NCBI GenBank assembly: GCA_035937595.1
Contig: DASZHS010000001.1
Span: 1,800-65,799, forward strand
DNA: 64,000 nt
Reading direction: 5' to 3'
Origin: Acidimicrobiales bacterium
GTDB taxonomy: Bacteria > Actinomycetota > Acidimicrobiia > Acidimicrobiales > RAAP-2
In this document: positions 28,849-38,612 of the stretch, in pieces
How the letters are laid out: every line of letters begins with the position of its first letter
Numbering within the stretch: position 1 is the stretch's first letter
The notes under the pieces: generated by a model
Databases searched by the model: none
Seen by the model: the letters and a program-made list of their open reading frames with translations, nothing else
What the model was told of the DNA's origin: nothing
Translations under genes and position numbers: made by a program

Positions 28849-29322
28849 TCAGGCGCCGTCGACGCTGAGGCGCGGCGTGGCCGCGAGGACCTCGAGCGCA
28901 CGGTCCGCGTGGCGGTCCATGCTGAACGCCGAGTCGATGACCTCGAGCACACGGCGGCGCTCGTCGAGGACGAAGGTGACGCGGCGCACCTTGAGGATGT
29001 TCAGCGCGCGCTTCACGCCGAAGGCCTTGGCGACCGCGCCGTCTTGGTCGCTGAGCAGCGGGTAGTCGAAGCCGTGCCGCTCGGCGAACGTCGCCTGCTT
29101 GTCGACCGAGTCCATGGAGATCCCGACGCGCACCGCACCGGCGGCGTCGAACTCGGCACCCAGGTCGCGGAAGTGGCAGCTCTCCTTGGTGCAGCCCGTC
29201 GTCATCGCCGCGGGGTAGAAGAACAGCACCGTGCGCCGTCCGTCGGCGATCGTCGAGAGCGACCGGACGCGACCCGTCTGGTCCGGGAGCTCGACGTCGG
29301 GCGCGGTGTCCCCGGCGTGCAC
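28849..29322 (-). CDS. bcp: peroxiredoxin (Bcp type)
   Basis: GTG at 29322. FFYPAAMTTGCTKESCHFRD contains the peroxidatic CxxxxC region. Confidence 0.88.
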   Translation of the reverse strand: MHAGDTAPDVELPDQTGRVRSLSTIADGRRTVLFFYPAAMTTGCTKESCHFRDLGAEFDAAGAVRVGISMDSVDKQATFAERHGFDYPLLSDQDGAVAKAFGVKRALNILKVRRVTFVLDERRRVLEVIDSAFSMDRHADRALEVLAATPRLSVDGA

Positions 29323-31642: not shown

Positions 31643-34012
31643 ATGACGAACGAGAACGTGACGCTCCCCCTGCTGCCCCTCACCTCCGGGGTGGTGCTGC
31701 CGGGGATGGTCTTCACCATGGCGCTCGAGTCCGGCGAGGCCCGAGCCGCCGTCGAGGCCGCCCGCTCGGCCGGTGGCCATCTGCTGCTGGTGCCCCACAT
31801 CGAGGGCCGCTTCGCCAACGTCGGCGTGATCGCCGAGGTGATGGAGGAAGGCGAGCTCCCCGGCGGCCTGCCGGCCGTGGCCATCCGAGGCGACGGTCGC
31901 GCGGTCATCGGCACGGGCGTGCCGGGGACCGGCGACGCCCTGTGGGTCGAGGCCGAGCCCCTGGTCGAGCCCGAGCCCAGCCCGGCGGCCAACGAGCTCG
32001 CCCGCGAGTACCGCGCGGTGCTGGAGAACATCCTGCACAGCCGGGGCGCCGCGCGGATCGCCGCACAGCTGCGCGAGGTCACCGAACCGAGCCGTCTGGC
32101 CGACGTGTCGGGGTACTCGCCCGACCTCTCGCTCAGCCAGAAGGTGGAGGTGCTCGAGACGCTCGACGTCGAGGCACGGCTGCGCCTGGTCCTCGGCTGG
32201 GCGCGCGACACGCTCGCCGACCTCACGCTCCGCGAGAAGATCAAGACGGACGTGGAAGAGGGCATGGAGAAGACGCAACGAGAGTTCCTGTTGCGCCGAC
32301 AGCTCGACGCCATCCGCAAGGAGCTCGGCCAGCTGGGTGACGGCGACGCCGACGACCCCGACGACTACCGCGCCAGGATCGAGGCGCGGGACCTGCCCGA
32401 GCACGTGCGCACGGCGGTCGAGCGCGAGGTGAACAAGCTCGAGCGGACGAGCGATCAGAGTCCGGAGACGGGCTGGATCCGAACCTGGCTCGACACCGTG
32501 CTCGAGCTGCCCTGGGGCGTGGAGTCAGAGGACCGCCTCGACGTCGCCGAGGCATCCCGCATCTTGGAGCAGGACCACGACGGCCTCGAGGACGTGAAGG
32601 AGCGCATTCTCGAGCACCTCGCCGTCCGCAAGCTCCAGGCCGAGCGGGGCCTCGCGCCGGTCGACGGGCGCGGGTCGGGGTCCATCCTGGCCCTCGTCGG
32701 CCCCCCGGGCGTCGGCAAGACGTCGCTCGGCGAGTCGGTCGCGTCCGCCCTCGGGCGCAAGTTCGTCCGTGTCTCGCTGGGCGGGGTCCGCGACGAGGCC
32801 GAGATCCGGGGCCACCGTCGCACCTACGTCGGTGCCCAGCCCGGCCGGCTCGTCCGCGCCCTGCGTGAGGCGGGGACCATGAACCCGGTCATCGTCCTCG
32901 ACGAGGTCGACAAGATCGGCACGGACTTCCGGGGCGACCCCTCCTCGGCGCTGCTCGAGGTGCTCGACCCGGCGCAGAACCACACCTTCCGCGACCACTA
33001 CCTCGAGGTCGACCTCGACCTGTCGCGCGTGCTGTTCATCGCGACGGCCAACGTGACCGAGACGATCCCGGGACCCCTGCTCGACCGCGTCGAGGTGATC
33101 CGCATCGATGGCTACACCGAGTCGGAGAAGGTCGCGATCGCCAAGCACCACCTCGTGGCTCGCCAGCTCGCCCGCGCTGCGCTGCACCCCGAGGAGGTGC
33201 AGGTCAGCGACGAGGCGCTCGGCGCCATCGTCGCCGACTACACGCGGGAGGCTGGCGTGCGCAACCTCGAGCGCGAGCTCGGGAAGCTCATGCGCAAGGT
33301 GGCGACCGCGTTGGCCTCCGGTGAGCGCCCAGCGCCCGTCGTGGTCGACGCCGGCGACGTGCGGGGGTGGCTTGGCCGGCCACGATTCTTCTTCGAGCCC
33401 GCAGACCGAACGAGCGTCCCCGGTGTTGCCACGGGCCTGGCCGTCACCGGTGCCGGCGGCGACGTGCTGTTCGTCGAGGCGAGCGTGGCCGACGGGCCCG
33501 AGGGACTGATCCTCACCGGTCAGCTGGGCGACGTGATGAAGGAGTCGGCAGAGATCGCGTTGTCGTTCGTCCGCTCGCACGCAGCTGAGCTCGGCATCGA
33601 TGCGACCGCCTTTGCGGGCCGGCGGTTCCACGTGCACGTCCCCGCTGGCGCGGTTCCAAAGGACGGTCCGTCGGCGGGTGTGACGATGACGACGGCGCTC
33701 GTGAGCCTGCTGCGTGACGTGCCGGTGCGCCCGGTCCTCGGGATGACCGGCGAGGTCACACTCCAGGGTCGCGTGCTGCCCATCGGTGGCGTCAAGCAGA
33801 AGGTGCTGGCCGCCCACCGGGCTGGGCTGACCGAGGTCGTCCTGCCGGAGCGCAACGGACCCGACCTCGAGGACGTCCCCGCAGAGGTCCGCGAGGCCAT
33901 GACGTTCCACCTGGCCGCCACGGTCGCCGACGTCCTCGCGCCGGCACTGTCTTCGACGGACGCGGCGGCATCGGGGACCGGAACGGACACCGGGCTGGGT
34001 GTCGCCGCCTGA
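31643..34012 (+). CDS. lon: ATP-dependent Lon protease
   Basis: ATG at 31643. It has a LON N-domain, AAA+ Walker A GPPGVGKTS, and the protease motif PKDGPSAGVTM with the catalytic Ser. Confidence 0.95.
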   Translation: MTNENVTLPLLPLTSGVVLPGMVFTMALESGEARAAVEAARSAGGHLLLVPHIEGRFANVGVIAEVMEEGELPGGLPAVAIRGDGRAVIGTGVPGTGDALWVEAEPLVEPEPSPAANELAREYRAVLENILHSRGAARIAAQLREVTEPSRLADVSGYSPDLSLSQKVEVLETLDVEARLRLVLGWARDTLADLTLREKIKTDVEEGMEKTQREFLLRRQLDAIRKELGQLGDGDADDPDDYRARIEARDLPEHVRTAVEREVNKLERTSDQSPETGWIRTWLDTVLELPWGVESEDRLDVAEASRILEQDHDGLEDVKERILEHLAVRKLQAERGLAPVDGRGSGSILALVGPPGVGKTSLGESVASALGRKFVRVSLGGVRDEAEIRGHRRTYVGAQPGRLVRALREAGTMNPVIVLDEVDKIGTDFRGDPSSALLEVLDPAQNHTFRDHYLEVDLDLSRVLFIATANVTETIPGPLLDRVEVIRIDGYTESEKVAIAKHHLVARQLARAALHPEEVQVSDEALGAIVADYTREAGVRNLERELGKLMRKVATALASGERPAPVVVDAGDVRGWLGRPRFFFEPADRTSVPGVATGLAVTGAGGDVLFVEASVADGPEGLILTGQLGDVMKESAEIALSFVRSHAAELGIDATAFAGRRFHVHVPAGAVPKDGPSAGVTMTTALVSLLRDVPVRPVLGMTGEVTLQGRVLPIGGVKQKVLAAHRAGLTEVVLPERNGPDLEDVPAEVREAMTFHLAATVADVLAPALSSTDAAASGTGTDTGLGVAA

Positions 34013-34083
34013 CAAGTCACGCGAGCGCGGCCGCCCCTTCGTATCGCCTTGCACGCCGGCGACGGGATGCGATCGCGCTCAGC

Positions 34084-34524
34084 TCACCTGACGCGCACCG
34101 TGACGTAGAAGCTGCCATTGCCCATCGTGCAGCGGAGCGCCTCGCCGCAGGAGACTCGTGACGCAGAGAGGGTGGCGCTCCCGGGTGCGGACGCCCGGAA
34201 CGTCGCCGTGACGGTGCCGCAGCCTTGGCCGGGGACGCAACCCCGCAACCGCGGGACCACCGTCACGGCACCACGTGCTGGCAGCACATCGGCGTTCGAG
34301 CTCGGATGCATCGACCAGTAGGTGCTGTCGAGGACCACGCGGAGGGTCTCGCCGGTATGGAGGTACACCGTCGATCCCTTGTCGCCGAACGTGACGGTGA
34401 CCGTGCCGGCGCGCTTGGGCGCCGCGCCAGACTGGCTGGCGACGAGCCCACCGAGGCCGAACACCAGGAGCACCGCGGCAGTGCCCAGACCGAAGCGCAT
34501 GACTCGTGTCTGCTCGCGTCGCAT
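34084..34524 (-). CDS. small secreted hypothetical protein (4 Cys, beta-rich)
   Basis: ATG at 34524 has AAGGAG 7 nt upstream. Signal peptide MRREQTRVMRFGLGTAAVLLVFGLGGLVASQSGAA. The mature part of about 110 aa contains the Cys pairs C..GQGC and C....RC. Confidence 0.65.
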   Translation of the reverse strand: MRREQTRVMRFGLGTAAVLLVFGLGGLVASQSGAAPKRAGTVTVTFGDKGSTVYLHTGETLRVVLDSTYWSMHPSSNADVLPARGAVTVVPRLRGCVPGQGCGTVTATFRASAPGSATLSASRVSCGEALRCTMGNGSFYVTVRVR

Positions 34525-34897
34525 CTCGTGAACTCCTTGTCGTCGAGCGGCCCCGATGGCCGGCACCTCCTTCCTGTCGCGACGGGCGGACTCCTTTCAC
34601 TTCCGCCCGACGGCCGGTGCCGCCGGTGTTGCCCCAAGCGCAGCCCCAAGCGCGGCCCCAGTGCGTCATGTGCGCAGACGGGAGCTTCGCCGGCGTCAGA
34701 GGTCTCGGACCCGGTGGCTGCCATCGAGGCTGACGAAGTGTCGCGGTCGCTCCAAGCCACGTCTGGACAGAGGGCGACGGGTGCCGCCGGGGCCGGTCAC
34801 ACCACGTTCGACCGGCGCAACCCCAGCGCGGGCCCTCGCCGTCGCCGTCGCCGTCGCGGTTTGAGCTCACGACACGCCGGTCGTAGCCTGCGGCGCG

Positions 34898-35965
34898 ATG
34901 AGGACGATTCGAGGATTTAGCCCCGCGCTTTTGCGCCTTGGGCGTGTCGGCACGGCGAGCCTTGCCTTGGCGACGGCGCTCGCCGGCTCGAGCTGGCACG
35001 TTGTCCATGGGCCCGGCGCGCACGGGAACCGACTCACGGGTGTGTCCTGCGCCTCACCGACCTTCTGCTTCGCGGTCGGTCAGTCCGGCAAAGGCGCAAC
35101 CTTGGCCGAGCTGTGGAACGGCCACCTGTGGACCATCACCACCGGCGCGAGGTTGCAGGGGCCGACCAGCTCCCTCTCGAGCGTGTCGTGTCTGTCGGGG
35201 AACGCCTGCTGGGCGATCGGCGTAGCCAAGAGCGACTTGTTCGAGCACTGGAACGGGAGCGACTGGCACGTGATCAGCGGCCCGCCGGGCTCATGGAGCC
35301 CTACGGGGCTGTCGTGCCCGAGCTCCACGTTCTGCGTCGCTTCGGGGAATACCGGCACTGCTGCAGACCTGGCGATCTGGAACGGTCAGCGATGGGTCGT
35401 GACGCACGGTGCGAAGTCGGAATCGAGAGCTCGCCTGCCGGCGGTCTCCTGTTCCTCGATCATGTTCTGCGAGGCAGTGGGCGTAGTGCCCAGTCGCACG
35501 GCTTCCCAGGTCCCCGCTGCGGAGTCGTGGGACGGGCAGGGTTGGGTGAACTCGCACGCTATCGCCCCTCGCTACGCGTCCCTCGATGGTGTCTCGTGCT
35601 GGTCCGCCTCGGGTTGCCTGGCCGTCGGCTCCGCGTACGTGCGGGCCGCTGGCCTCTCGGGGTTCGCCGAGCGGTGGAACGGCCTCCGATGGTCGAGGGT
35701 GAAGGTACCGCTGGCGAGAGGTGAGGTGCTGCTCAACGTGGCGTGCACGGGCCCAAGTCACTGCCTCGTCGTCGGACATGAAGGAATACAGCCGATCGTC
35801 TTGTCGTGGAACGGCAGGAGCATGGCGACGGCGAGAACCCAGCACGTGACGGCTGGCGGTGTCCTCAGCGCGATAGCGCTCACCGGGGGATTCGGTGTCG
35901 CCGTTGGCTTCTCCAACGGGACAGGGTCGCGGGCAGGGAGCTCGCTCATCGAGATGCAGACGTGA
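34898..35965 (+). CDS. secreted repeat protein with 6-7 copies of a Cys-pair motif (propeller-like)
   Basis: 355 aa. The unit of about 45 aa is [LV]xxVSCxSxxxCxAVG....(A)xxWNGxxW, read six times, plus a degenerate seventh copy lacking the Cys residues. There is a hydrophobic N-terminal signal-like segment. Confidence 0.65.
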   Translation: MRTIRGFSPALLRLGRVGTASLALATALAGSSWHVVHGPGAHGNRLTGVSCASPTFCFAVGQSGKGATLAELWNGHLWTITTGARLQGPTSSLSSVSCLSGNACWAIGVAKSDLFEHWNGSDWHVISGPPGSWSPTGLSCPSSTFCVASGNTGTAADLAIWNGQRWVVTHGAKSESRARLPAVSCSSIMFCEAVGVVPSRTASQVPAAESWDGQGWVNSHAIAPRYASLDGVSCWSASGCLAVGSAYVRAAGLSGFAERWNGLRWSRVKVPLARGEVLLNVACTGPSHCLVVGHEGIQPIVLSWNGRSMATARTQHVTAGGVLSAIALTGGFGVAVGFSNGTGSRAGSSLIEMQT

Positions 35966-36465
35966 ACGCTGTCCGCATGGGAGTCGACGCAGGTCGCGCA
36001 GCACGCCGATCCAGTCGTCCGAGAATCGATTGAATGGCGACTGGGTTCGGGGAGAGTAGCGCCGCCAGCTGACGGTTTTGGGCGGCACAAGGTCTGCCAC
36101 ACGACACGCATCGGTGCTCCAACGCGAGCTCGTTGTGGACAGGTGCAATCAGTCGTCGACCTCGACGCGCGCGGTGCGGCGGGTAGCAGCGCAATCTGCA
36201 AGTGGCGACAGCGGTACCCGTGAGTCAGCACGTGATGAAGTTCTCACGACCCGGCGCGTCGCATCCAGTGGTTGAGGGCAGGGTTGCACTCCTCCCTCGG
36301 ACGACGCCGCAGGTTGCAGCGCTTCCACGTGACGGCGATCGACTCCTGGCCTAGGGTGGCCGAGCCGCGACAACGGCGCGAACCTACAACGGGCGTTCGG
36401 TCCATGCCGAAGCAGGGATTCCCATGGAGCCTTCCGGACGGCCGTCAACCAAACGGAGGACACAC

Positions 36466-37686
36466 ATGAGAAAAGTACGCAGGGGTCGCGGTCTGGCCTT
36501 GGCGGTAGCCGGGGTGACTGCGCTGTCCATGCTCGTCCTGAGCCCGATGGCCGCAAACGCCACGTCAGCGCCGAGGTCGAAGCCCGCCCCGGGCTGTGCC
36601 CAGGTGCAGCAGCCTTCGAGTTCAGCTGCGATCGCCCACATCGGCGGCATCATCCTCGCGCAGAGCTCCGTTGCCACTGGTGGGTGCCACAAGCCCCCGC
36701 CAGAGCCGGCGTTCGACGGCGCTCCGCCGCTGCTCTTCCACCCGACGAACTGCTTCGGCTTCGGTGTCCCGTGCTTCAACGGCAACGTGATGATGACGGC
36801 GTCGACCGGCCCGCTCTACGTGACACCGATCTTCTGGAACCCGACCGGGTACCCGATGTCGGATGCCTATAAGAGCATCATCACGGGGTACCTGAACAAC
36901 GTCGCGAAGATGAGCGGCCAGAACCAGAACGTGTTCTCGACGCTGAACGAGTACTCAGGGACCAACGGCCAGATTCAGTACAACATCAAGGTCGGACCGG
37001 TCATCAACGACACCAGCGCGCTGCCGTTGTCGGGTTGCACGGTGGAGCCCCTTGACACGTCGGGGATCTACGCCGACAACTCGGGCTACAGCGCCTGCCT
37101 GGACGACAACCAGATCGAGAACGAGGTCGAAGCGGTTCGGACGGCCAACAGCCTGCCGGCCGACCTGACTCACATCTACGTGGTGTACCTGCCCAAGGGT
37201 GTCGAGTCGTGCTTCTTCCCGGGGCCGACCGCTTCCAACAACGTCTGCACGATCAACCACTTCCCGACCGCGGCGTACTGCGCGTACCACAGCTTTGACA
37301 ACCAGAGCGCCGTCTACGCGAACATGGTGTACCCGATCTACCAGTCGCCGGTTGGCTTCACCTGCGGCAGCGACGCAAGGTTCCCGGTCATCGAGTCGCC
37401 GAACGGCAACGCCGACGCCGACACCGAGATCAGCCCGACCAGCCACGAGATCAGCGAAGCGATCACCGACCCGGATACCCAGACGGGCTGGTATGACCAG
37501 TTCGGGTTCGAAAACGGTGACGAGTGCGCGTACGTCTATGGCTCGACGAACGGCCCGCGTGGCGGCTACTTCAACCAGGTCATCAACGGCCAGAGGTACC
37601 TCACGCAGCTCGAGTTCAGCAACAAGGTGTTCGCAAGCTCCGGCGGCACCGCCGGATGTGTGCCAGGGGCGTCGTCAGTCAAGTAG
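36466..37686 (+). CDS. secreted Cys-rich hypothetical protein (possible EXORDIUM/PHI-1-like domain)
   Basis: ATG at 36466 has GGAGGA 6 nt upstream. Signal peptide MRKVRRGRGLALAVAGVTALSMLVLSPMAANA. The mature protein has 12 Cys. The stretch ..HIYVVYLPKGV..C....C.YHS....PNGNADADTEISPTSHEISEAITDPDTQTGWYD resembles the plant PHI-1/EXORDIUM core. The gene is visibly lower in GC than its flanks. Confidence 0.7.
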   Translation: MRKVRRGRGLALAVAGVTALSMLVLSPMAANATSAPRSKPAPGCAQVQQPSSSAAIAHIGGIILAQSSVATGGCHKPPPEPAFDGAPPLLFHPTNCFGFGVPCFNGNVMMTASTGPLYVTPIFWNPTGYPMSDAYKSIITGYLNNVAKMSGQNQNVFSTLNEYSGTNGQIQYNIKVGPVINDTSALPLSGCTVEPLDTSGIYADNSGYSACLDDNQIENEVEAVRTANSLPADLTHIYVVYLPKGVESCFFPGPTASNNVCTINHFPTAAYCAYHSFDNQSAVYANMVYPIYQSPVGFTCGSDARFPVIESPNGNADADTEISPTSHEISEAITDPDTQTGWYDQFGFENGDECAYVYGSTNGPRGGYFNQVINGQRYLTQLEFSNKVFASSGGTAGCVPGASSVK

Positions 37687-37711
37687 TCGCCTACGCACAG
37701 CAAGGAGTCCA

Positions 37712-37753
37712 CGAGGCTCCGGGTCGGGACGCAGTTCCCGGCCCGGAGCCTCG
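37712..37753 (+). terminator. long perfect hairpin downstream of the island's last gene
   Basis: CGAGGCTCCGGG (37712-37723) pairs with CCCGGAGCCTCG (37742-37753). The 18-nt loop contains an inner CGGGA/TCCCG stem. There is no clear U-tract. Confidence 0.5.
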
Positions 37754-37870
37754 TTGCATCTGGACCTGAATCGCCGCCGGTCGCGCCCCGGCGTCGCGCG
37801 ATCGGGTGCACCTTGGTGACCTGGTCGGATTAGGGAAGGTCCGTGGAGGTCGCCTGCGCAAGCCGTGCGT

Positions 37871-37943
37871 GCGTTGGGCTCACCGCGTTGGGCTCACATA
37901 TTGGGGCTCACCGCGAGTGGAGCGGGCGACGGAGCGGGCGACG
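37871..37943. repeat. two sets of short tandem repeats abutting and overlapping the 3' end of tRNA-Gly
   Basis: Three copies of a 14-mer: GCGTTGGGCTCACC (37871-84), GCGTTGGGCTCACA (37885-98), TATTGGGGCTCACC (37899-912). Then GAGCGGGCGACG twice (37920-31 and 37932-43). The second 12-mer copy is the tRNA acceptor/discriminator end. Confidence 0.8.
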
Positions 37944-38003
37944 GGAATCGAACCCGCGTTCTCAGCTTGGGAAGCTGATGTTCTGCCGCTGAACTACGCC
38001 CGC
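37933..38003 (-). tRNA. tRNA-Gly (anticodon CCC)
   Basis: Hand-folded cloverleaf from the reverse complement. Acceptor GCGGGCG/CGCCCGC, D-stem GTTC/GAAC, anticodon stem TCAGC/GCTGA with loop TTCCCAA, T-arm GCGGG-TTCGATT-CCCGT, discriminator U. CCA is not encoded. Confidence 0.9.
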
Positions 38004-38033: not shown

Positions 38034-38612
38034 ATGGTTCTCTCTGACCGCTCGATCCGAGAGGCGATCGAGGCAGGTCGGATCGTCATCGATCCCCTCG
38101 GTGTGGACTGCATCCAGCCCTCGTCCGTCGACCTGCACGTTGACCAGTACTTCCGGCTGTTCCGCAACCACACCTCGAGGGTGATCGACGTTCGAGAGGA
38201 TCAAGAGGACCTCACCGAGTTGGTCGACGTGGGAGCCGAAGGGCCGCTCATCTTGCACCCGGGCGAGTTCATGCTGGGTGCGACGATCGAGCGGGTCGGC
38301 GTCCCCGAGGACCTGGTCGCGCGGCTCGAGGGGAAGAGTTCGCTCGGCCGGCTCGGCCTGCTGATCCACTCGACGGCCGGCTTCGTCGACGCGGGGTGGG
38401 ACGGGCACCTCACCTTGGAGCTGTCGAACGTCGCCAACCTCCCGATCACGCTGTACCCAGGAATGAAGATCGGCCAGATCAGCTTCTTCCAGATGACGAC
38501 CAAGGCCGACCGCCCCTACGGCTCGAGCGGGCTCAACTCCAAGTACCTCGGGCAGCGCGGCCCGACGCCCAGCCGCTACGCGGAGAACTTCCGCCGGCAC
38601 ACCTCGTCGTGA
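38034..38612 (+). CDS. dcd: dCTP deaminase
   Basis: 192 aa. [21 protein letters not shown]...[12 protein letters not shown]. Confidence 0.93.

Follow-up and report, generated by a model that had tools for sequence, protein, structure and literature searches.

The stretch of DNA considered here (the window) comprises 64,000 nucleotides (nt) from a member of the Acidimicrobiales (GenBank assembly GCA_035937595.1, contig DASZHS010000001.1, positions 1,800 to 65,799 of the forward strand). In this window, we focus on a 3.9-kb islet located between the gene of the Lon protease and a tRNA-Gly(CCC) gene, which had been described, in a preliminary way, as the scar of a tRNA-targeted integrative element. 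The islet spans 34013-37930, adjoins the 3' end of the minus-strand tRNA, and harbours three genes, hereafter named orfA, orfB and orfC. The features of the locus are the following.

31643-34012, plus strand: lon, with the Pfam domains Lon_C, AAA and LON_substr_bdg; last gene of the left conserved block
34013-34083: spacer of 71 nt between lon and orfA
34055-34084: weak similarity to the tRNA-Gly 3' half as read on the plus strand (extended from the 21-mer of the preliminary description)
34084-34500, minus strand: orfA, 138 aa, secreted, 4 Cys; called by JGI
34501-34897: gap between orfA and orfB, 331-397 nt according to the orfA start chosen, with short tandem repeats inside
34898-35965, plus strand: orfB, 355 aa, predicted secreted seven-bladed beta-propeller
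35966-36465: gap between orfB and orfC, 500 nt, non-coding
36466-37686, plus strand: orfC, 406 aa, secreted, 12 Cys; distantly Phi_1/EXORDIUM-like
37711-37754: hairpin with 19-nt arms (95% complementary) and a 6-nt loop, 25 nt past the orfC stop
37871-37915: three tandem 14-nt units (GCGTTGGGCTCACC), found by TRF and repeat search
37919-37942: exact tandem duplication, two 12-nt units, of the tRNA 3' terminus (TRF)
37931-38003, minus strand: tRNA-Gly(CCC), predicted by ARAGORN (Rfam, 69.5 bits); first feature of the right conserved block
38034-38612, plus strand: dcd (Pfam DCD, 1e-50), which opens a conserved run comprising dcd, a CCG-domain gene, amt, PII and genes beyond

As stated in the preliminary description, the three open reading frames (ORFs) code for secreted Cys-rich proteins, since all three carry signal peptides and Cys accounts for about 3% of their residues versus 1.1% in the background. 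The non-coding gaps measure 331-397, 500 and 244 nt; of the two lengths first given, 500 bp is correct and 373 bp hinges on which start of orfA is used. No coding signal was seen in the orfA-orfB gap by GC frame plot, nor any frame-specific signal in GC content at third codon positions (GC3) in the 500-nt gap upstream of orfC, and scans of the islet gaps for Rfam families, promoters and terminators returned nothing. The orfA-orfB gap contains two arrays detected by TRF, namely, a 12-nt unit repeated 2.5 times (GCCCCAAGCGCA, 34631-34660) and a 6-nt unit repeated 4.3 times (GCCGTC, 34832-34857). The hairpin downstream of orfC is likely a terminator. An identical sequence over the whole interval is present in two further JGI assemblies (loci L001 and L002; samples 3300037852 and 3300037846), so that the junctions from lon through the islet and the tRNA to dcd do not result from an assembly chimera.

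With regard to related genomes, metagenome scans anchored on dcd (80 loci) or lon (about 90 loci) provided about 170 loci overall. The tblastx comparison of relatives with the window was dropped owing to thousands of spurious high-GC matches, and blastn and tblastn were used instead. On the right side, the order of dcd, the CCG-domain gene, amt, PII and further genes is kept in most of the dcd-anchored loci that are sufficiently long. A tRNA-Gly(CCC) was detected left of dcd in most loci, at 250 nt or less from dcd in 25 of them. The sequence of the window tRNA recurs unchanged in L083-L088, and the 18 relatives that were aligned show it either unchanged or with few differences. Left of this tRNA, none of the 80 loci carries lon, orfA, orfB, orfC or any other window ORF. 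On the left side, the window Lon shares 90% identity with Lon from Acidimicrobiaceae metagenome-assembled genomes (MAGs). Most relatives with about 90% Lon identity have a common context made of DUF3039, lon, DUF2630 and YfhO (L167, L169-L172). In locus L168, colinearity with the window begins at 28948, runs through a response regulator gene, an EryCIII-like glycosyltransferase gene and lon, and ends exactly at the lon stop (34012). Past this stop come an M48 peptidase gene and then an FtsX gene, and an orfA remnant sought after lon in L168 was not found.

Because L168 is colinear up to the lon stop and the right block is colinear from the tRNA onwards, the islet is precisely the interval that is not shared with relatives. 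It is absent at the same site from loci with conserved flanks (80 on the right, L168 on the left), but the two flanks have never been seen adjacent. Its left end probably lies at the lon stop, although this limit is uncertain. Only lon itself is conserved in the lon-anchored scan, which gave no help in defining an empty site. The 3' side of lon is a recurrent breakpoint.

The composition of the islet differs from that of the host backbone. Its GC content is 0.667, compared with 0.741 in the 10 kb to the left, 0.704 in the 10 kb to the right and 0.725 in the whole window, which places it among the lowest 4% of 3.9-kb windows. The third codon positions follow the same trend, with GC3 values of 0.86 (orfA), 0.82 (orfB) and 0.88 (orfC) versus 0.939 +/- 0.025 in 24 trusted genes of the window (z-scores of -2.3 to -5). 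The islet had been noticed as richer in A/T than its flanks, and both profiles confirm this, but amino-acid composition and non-coding DNA explain part of the dip. The GC values of orfC at the first and second codon positions are 0.53 and 0.49 despite a GC3 of 0.88, the GC content of dcd is only 65.6%, and the 3.9-kb window of minimum GC straddles orfC, the tRNA and dcd.

Genes for tRNAs are classic integration hotspots, and remnants devoid of integrase are common beside them. In relatives, the 3' flank of tRNA-Gly(CCC) is occupied in a highly variable manner. The clearest case is L087, whose dcd is 95% identical to that of the window and in which a tyrosine integrase gene abuts the tRNA 3' end (Pfam Phage_integrase, 3e-13). 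It belongs to an intact element of about 5.8 kb (L087:2958-8783), with 43 nt of the tRNA 3' half perfectly duplicated 5.7 kb to the left, a GC content of 0.59-0.64 versus 0.68 for the backbone, and paired ATGTCGCCC repeats near both ends that are arm-like. The L087 integrase shares 33-37% identity with integrases of actinophages, mostly Mycobacterium phages. An integrase of the same type is present in L088 (81% identity), and relatives of it were found in L134/L141, L124, L147, L109 and L103. A different integrase is encoded in L111 (L111:6154-9970), together with a 43-nt attachment site (att) copy 3.7 kb off and a PRiA4_ORF3-like cargo gene.

Furthermore, partial tRNA copies of 22-51 nt with 87-100% identity are present in at least 12 loci besides L087 (L091, L107, L131, L134, L151, L154/L158 and others), 0.1-5.8 kb away from the tRNA. 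No integrase was detected among the ORFs tested in L107, L131 and L151. Copies of 39-51 nt (90-98% identity) were found at L134:1734-9204, L091:8283-8510, L107:1147-7045, L111:6154-9970 and L131:562-3150; L134 possesses two tandem tRNA copies, and the copy in L091 lies just 118 nt from the tRNA. The islets of this set measure 2.5-5.8 kb and carry varied cargo, for instance ArsP/YHS, AhpC and DsbD in L107. Elsewhere, the flank is occupied by insertion sequence (IS) transposases, a PLD-like protein, a GH28 hydrolase, spherulin/fn3 proteins, TldD/PmbA and others. Judged from these comparisons, tRNA-Gly(CCC) is a proven integration hotspot in relatives. The window islet is located on the 3' side of an intact copy of this tRNA gene, the attB of which is used in relatives by demonstrable elements (elements or scars in L087, L088, L111 and L134/L141).

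A further connection with these elements comes from orfB. This protein has 460 homologues, the best two sharing 62% and 45% identity, and contains seven repeats of the consensus LxGVSCxSxxxCxAVG...ExWNGxxW, with a Cys pair in six of the seven. The AlphaFold2 (AF2) model (predicted local distance difference test, pLDDT, 89.8; predicted TM-score, pTM, 0.87) displays seven times four strands, and the best PDB matches in Foldseek are YCF48 structures (E 1.7e-10, TM-scores of 0.59-0.68), so that orfB is predicted to adopt a seven-bladed beta-propeller fold. It thus resembles YCF48/BNR-like propellers in its confident model and in its best structural matches. It differs from them by the Cys pairs in six of seven repeats, the WNGxxW motif, secretion and a non-phototrophic host; moreover, neither orfB nor its 39 aligned homologues matched the Pfam PSII_BNR or BNR Asp-box families, and the PDB profile search with the orfB family came out empty.

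In the L087 element, both cargo genes belong to the orfB family (hmmsearch, 1e-29 and 4e-24; hhalign probability of 97.9%), whereas the L134 element carries a different YCF48-like propeller; cargo proteins of L087 and L134 match Pfam PSII_BNR. Across the 2.6 Mb of fetched loci, the orfB family was found only in the islet, in both L087 cargo genes and in one inserted segment of L154, and the probability of encountering an orfB-family gene in a random 3.9-kb stretch is about 0.004-0.015. Of the positive evidence that connects the islet with the hotspot elements, this shared cargo family is the strongest. The L154 gene (L154:17394-19169) lies in an additional stretch of about 4.7 kb that separates PII from the next conserved gene and that the other dcd-anchored loci lack.

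orfB is a genuine gene, but the JGI calls split it: a C-terminal fragment of 108 aa (35639-35965) was called along with an antisense ORF of 92 aa (35080-35358), and consequently the protein database lacks the complete product of 355 aa.

The two other genes also belong to large families. orfA matches 744 clusters at 50% identity. Five out of 42 homologues weakly match the chagasin/I42 family (PF09394; best E 3.8e-4), orfA itself giving no match, and the family profile weakly retrieves ICP (2wgn_B, E 0.028) and chagasin (E 0.56) from the PDB. orfC, preceded by a GGAGGA ribosome-binding site 5 nt before its ATG, has more than 1600 homologues with 58-80% identity, and is essentially absent from plasmids. 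Nine Cys, H275 and a SHE..E..TDPD motif are invariant in 42 homologues, and the latter two elements suggest a metal or catalytic site. For a secreted protein that has not been characterised, the degree of conservation within this family (36466-37686 in the window; homologues P0002-P0120) is unusually high. Against Pfam Phi_1 (PF04674), orfC scores 19.6-19.8 bits (E 5.5e-4 to 6.4e-4 according to the start), below the cutoff of 25, and 34 of the 42 homologues match weakly (best E 8e-6), which points to a protein distantly related to Phi_1/EXORDIUM but not a member of that family. The AF2 model of orfC (pLDDT 45) is too poor for a fold search, and the PDB profile search with its family returned no hit. 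Given the weak or structural links of all three families to known folds, the initial statement that the proteins had no recognisable function was overstated.

The homologues of orfC with 72-75% identity are surrounded by housekeeping genes, and neither a tRNA nor lon, orfA or orfB lies in their vicinity. The closest homologues of orfA are unlinked to orfB and orfC, and those of the trio lie on short or unrelated contigs. As the closest homologues are mutually unlinked, the trio is a mosaic rather than a conserved cargo module. Two side observations concern orfC. Firstly, a long non-coding stretch also precedes homologues (about 890 nt in L163 and about 500 nt in the P0003 contig, compared with 500 nt here), and the region upstream of orfC is not conserved in sequence with theirs. 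Secondly, a Phi_1-like gene in a Solirubrobacterales MAG (L043:15150-17600), sharing 37% identity with orfC (family hidden Markov model, E 1e-47), is located about 3 kb downstream of lon, which may be a coincidence.

Altogether, we lean towards interpreting the islet as an old remnant, now immobilised, of one or more integrations at the tRNA-Gly(CCC) hotspot, having lost its integrase and a recognisable att site; this is, in our opinion, somewhat the most probable origin. The interval 34013-37930 would then represent lineage-specific accessory DNA in the hypervariable 3' flank of the tRNA, a flank that islets with an L5-type tyrosine integrase use repeatedly in related Acidimicrobiia. One or more insertions probably left a remnant from which the integrase was deleted, the distal att copy having possibly decayed past reliable detection, and three independently acquired genes for secreted proteins may have been fixed in place. 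Arrival through integrase-mediated recombination at the tRNA is what we infer from these features.

A number of findings weigh against this interpretation. The preliminary description relied mainly on a bracketing of the islet by copies of the tRNA end, and the 21-mer GCCGGCGACGGGATGCGATCG (34055-34075) does match GCGGGCGACGGGAATCGAACC (37934-37954) at 16 of 21 positions, with the 10-nt core GGCGACGGGA, as quoted. However, this match does not withstand the comparison with shuffled sequence that the preliminary description had itself named as a refuting condition. In 200 dinucleotide-preserving shuffles of the window, matches to the tRNA 21-mer at 16 or more of 21 positions occur 0.86 times per strand per 64 kb, compared with a single such match on each strand of the actual window. 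The pair is stretched to 19 of 24 positions by the repeat search, and to 26 of 34 by gapped alignment (34054-34084 with tRNA positions 4-37); this last score is equalled by an unrelated site near 15.4 kb, and 0.92 such matches per 64 kb are found in shuffles versus two observed. The lon-side repeat is thus no better than chance, and the distal end of the islet shows no above-chance direct repeat of the tRNA 3' segment. The match is also weaker than the genuine att copies of relatives, the lengths and identities of which were given above.

Mobility genes are likewise lacking. No integrase gene lies inside the islet: neither tblastn of six integrases of relatives against the window nor profiles run on every window ORF of at least 60 aa gave anything with E < 0.1 except the tRNA overlap, and no tyrosine integrase or rve/DDE transposase is present in the window, either intact or as a fragment. 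A match of the L088 integrase running into 37882-37932 was considered as a remnant and rejected, being explained by the overlap with the tRNA. It had been proposed to look for an integrase-bearing version of the islet; when the 80 dcd-anchored loci, including the elements of relatives, were compared with the islet, none of them showed DNA similarity to it. The orfB family occurs also away from integrases. Lastly, lon is beside tRNA-Gly in none of the about 170 loci, although such an adjacency had been suggested as a check, and no empty site was observed; a simple insertion between lon and tRNA-Gly is therefore not demonstrated. The neighbours of lon vary among relatives regardless.

This last point leads to the most serious rival, which we consider rather unlikely all the same, namely, that an inversion, translocation or deletion joined the lon and tRNA-Gly blocks, and that the islet consists of native genes from expanded families without any element being involved. 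Such a rearrangement junction would fit with the downstream neighbour of lon, which differs in three lineages (DUF2630/YfhO, M48/FtsX and the islet), with the large size of all three families, common in soil Actinomycetota, with the housekeeping contexts of homologues and with the absence of mobile-element genes from the window. It accounts poorly, however, for a break that falls, to the nucleotide, at the 3' end of a tRNA already proven to be a hotspot, for trio GC3 values lying 2.3-5 standard deviations under those of the window genes, and for the occurrence of the orfB family as cargo of the intact L087 element at the same site.

The original model is a narrower version of the remnant interpretation, with a single 3.9-kb element inserted between adjacent lon and tRNA-Gly genes, 34055-34075 as its att site and the 12-nt copy as a second trace. 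The position of the match speaks for it, and for the broader remnant interpretation as well. The best tRNA-like match in the upstream 38 kb falls inside the 71-nt spacer at the left synteny break, 43 nt past this independently defined break, and covers the same part of the tRNA (from the 3' end to the anticodon stem) as the att cores of relatives; with about 1-2 chance matches per 64 kb, placement in the spacer by chance has a p of about 0.002. This argument is nevertheless post hoc, because the match was picked for its position, so that its placement is suggestive only. In addition, shuffles and another site of the window reach the same score, no locus has lon next to tRNA-Gly, and the unlinked closest homologues of the trio make a single cargo unit unlikely.

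The second trace does not help either. The exact 12-nt tandem copy GGAGCGGGCGAC (37919-37930 and 37931-37942) is real, and the window contains four exact tandem duplications with a period of 10-15 nt versus 0.39 in shuffles, but its reading as an att trace is not supported. The outer copy has a T before it, giving TGGAGCGGGCGAC / TGGAGCGGG, that is, the CCA-encoding end found in L083-L086, L089 and L090. Since this T reproduces the end seen in relatives, the copy is best read as a probable local slippage duplication inside the tRNA end rather than an att remnant. Owing to the duplication, G and not A comes after the functional tRNA copy (CCG), whose CCA is not encoded, and the outer copy retains the T that would encode CCA; the tRNA-Gly genes of L083-L086, L089 and L090 encode CCA directly. 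In view of these points, we judge the original model in its exact form to be improbable.

The 14-nt units (GCGTTGGGCTCACC) deserve a separate comment. They lie 20-60 nt from the tRNA 3' end, and the motif occurs eight times in the window with at most one mismatch, versus 2.3 expected. For the TTGGGCTCAC motif array, no counterpart was found beside the candidate att site or anywhere else in the window, and no other locus shows the motif clustered. The position of the GCGTTGGGCTCACC array resembles that of the integrase arm-type repeats beside the tRNA in L087, L088 and L102/L103, and by this analogy it may be an integrase arm-type site, which is an inference only.

The third alternative, an ancestral trio between lon and tRNA-Gly lost or replaced in all sampled relatives, has in its favour only that no empty lon/tRNA-Gly junction was seen and is very unlikely, for it needs many independent losses and runs against the atypical GC3, the closest homologues (72-80% identity) in other contexts, and the finding, in line with the check initially proposed, that 0 of 80 dcd-anchored and 0 of about 90 lon-anchored loci keep any trio gene in place.

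Returning to the remnant interpretation, the idea of a tRNA-targeted element that lost its integrase and kept secreted cargo is borne out as regards the position at the tRNA, the absence from relatives, the GC3, the use of the hotspot and the orfB cargo family; it does not hold for a bracketing repeat, an integrase remnant, a conserved cargo module or an adjacency of lon and tRNA-Gly. Compared with other tRNA-linked genomic islands with degenerate ends, such as the pathogenicity islands of E. coli, the window islet shares the location at a tRNA 3' end, atypical composition, variable occupancy and the loss of mobility genes. It differs by its very small size (3.9 kb), the lack of a detectable direct repeat, and a cargo made of three unrelated secreted proteins, in a lineage of Acidimicrobiaceae that is uncultured. 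The actinomycete integrative and conjugative elements (AICEs) of actinobacteria rely on tyrosine integrases to enter tRNA genes; neither the window islet nor the examined ORFs of the small islets of relatives include replication or FtsK-like transfer genes.

The closest parallel to the elements of relatives would be L5-type integration, with which the L087 element shares a perfect 43-nt core over the tRNA-Gly 3' half, an actinophage-like integrase and paired arm-like repeats near both ends. The phages L5, D29 and Che12 possess a tyrosine integrase and an attB in tRNA-Gly, the listed coordinates of which span 43 bp (PMC2884959). The window differs in being without integrase and without a significant core copy, and the elements of relatives differ in being islets of 1.4-5.8 kb with few cargo genes, and not phages.

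With respect to its significance, the islet is an ordinary case of a well-known kind, and its value is mainly practical: genuine att scars at this locus are unmistakable, whereas the candidate in the window is not, and in a genome with about 72% GC a short GC-rich 'repeat' of the end of a tRNA is no evidence of an att site. The analysis also draws attention to three large families of secreted Cys-rich proteins without characterised members, one of which, that of orfB, is mis-called in public annotation. More broadly, tRNA-Gly(CCC)/dcd emerges as a hotspot that is heavily used in an uncultured Acidimicrobiaceae clade, where islets of 1.4-5.8 kb with L5-like integrases occupy it. It is conceivable, albeit doubtful, that the 3' flank of tRNA-Gly(CCC) is a dedicated cassette site in peat and soil Acidimicrobiia, where small islets with L5-type integrases shuttle the genes of YCF48-like propellers stapled by disulfides, and of other secreted proteins, between genomes. 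If so, the window would hold a captured and immobilised cassette, and the locus would reflect a small-scale exchange of secreted proteins rather than an occasional prophage scar.

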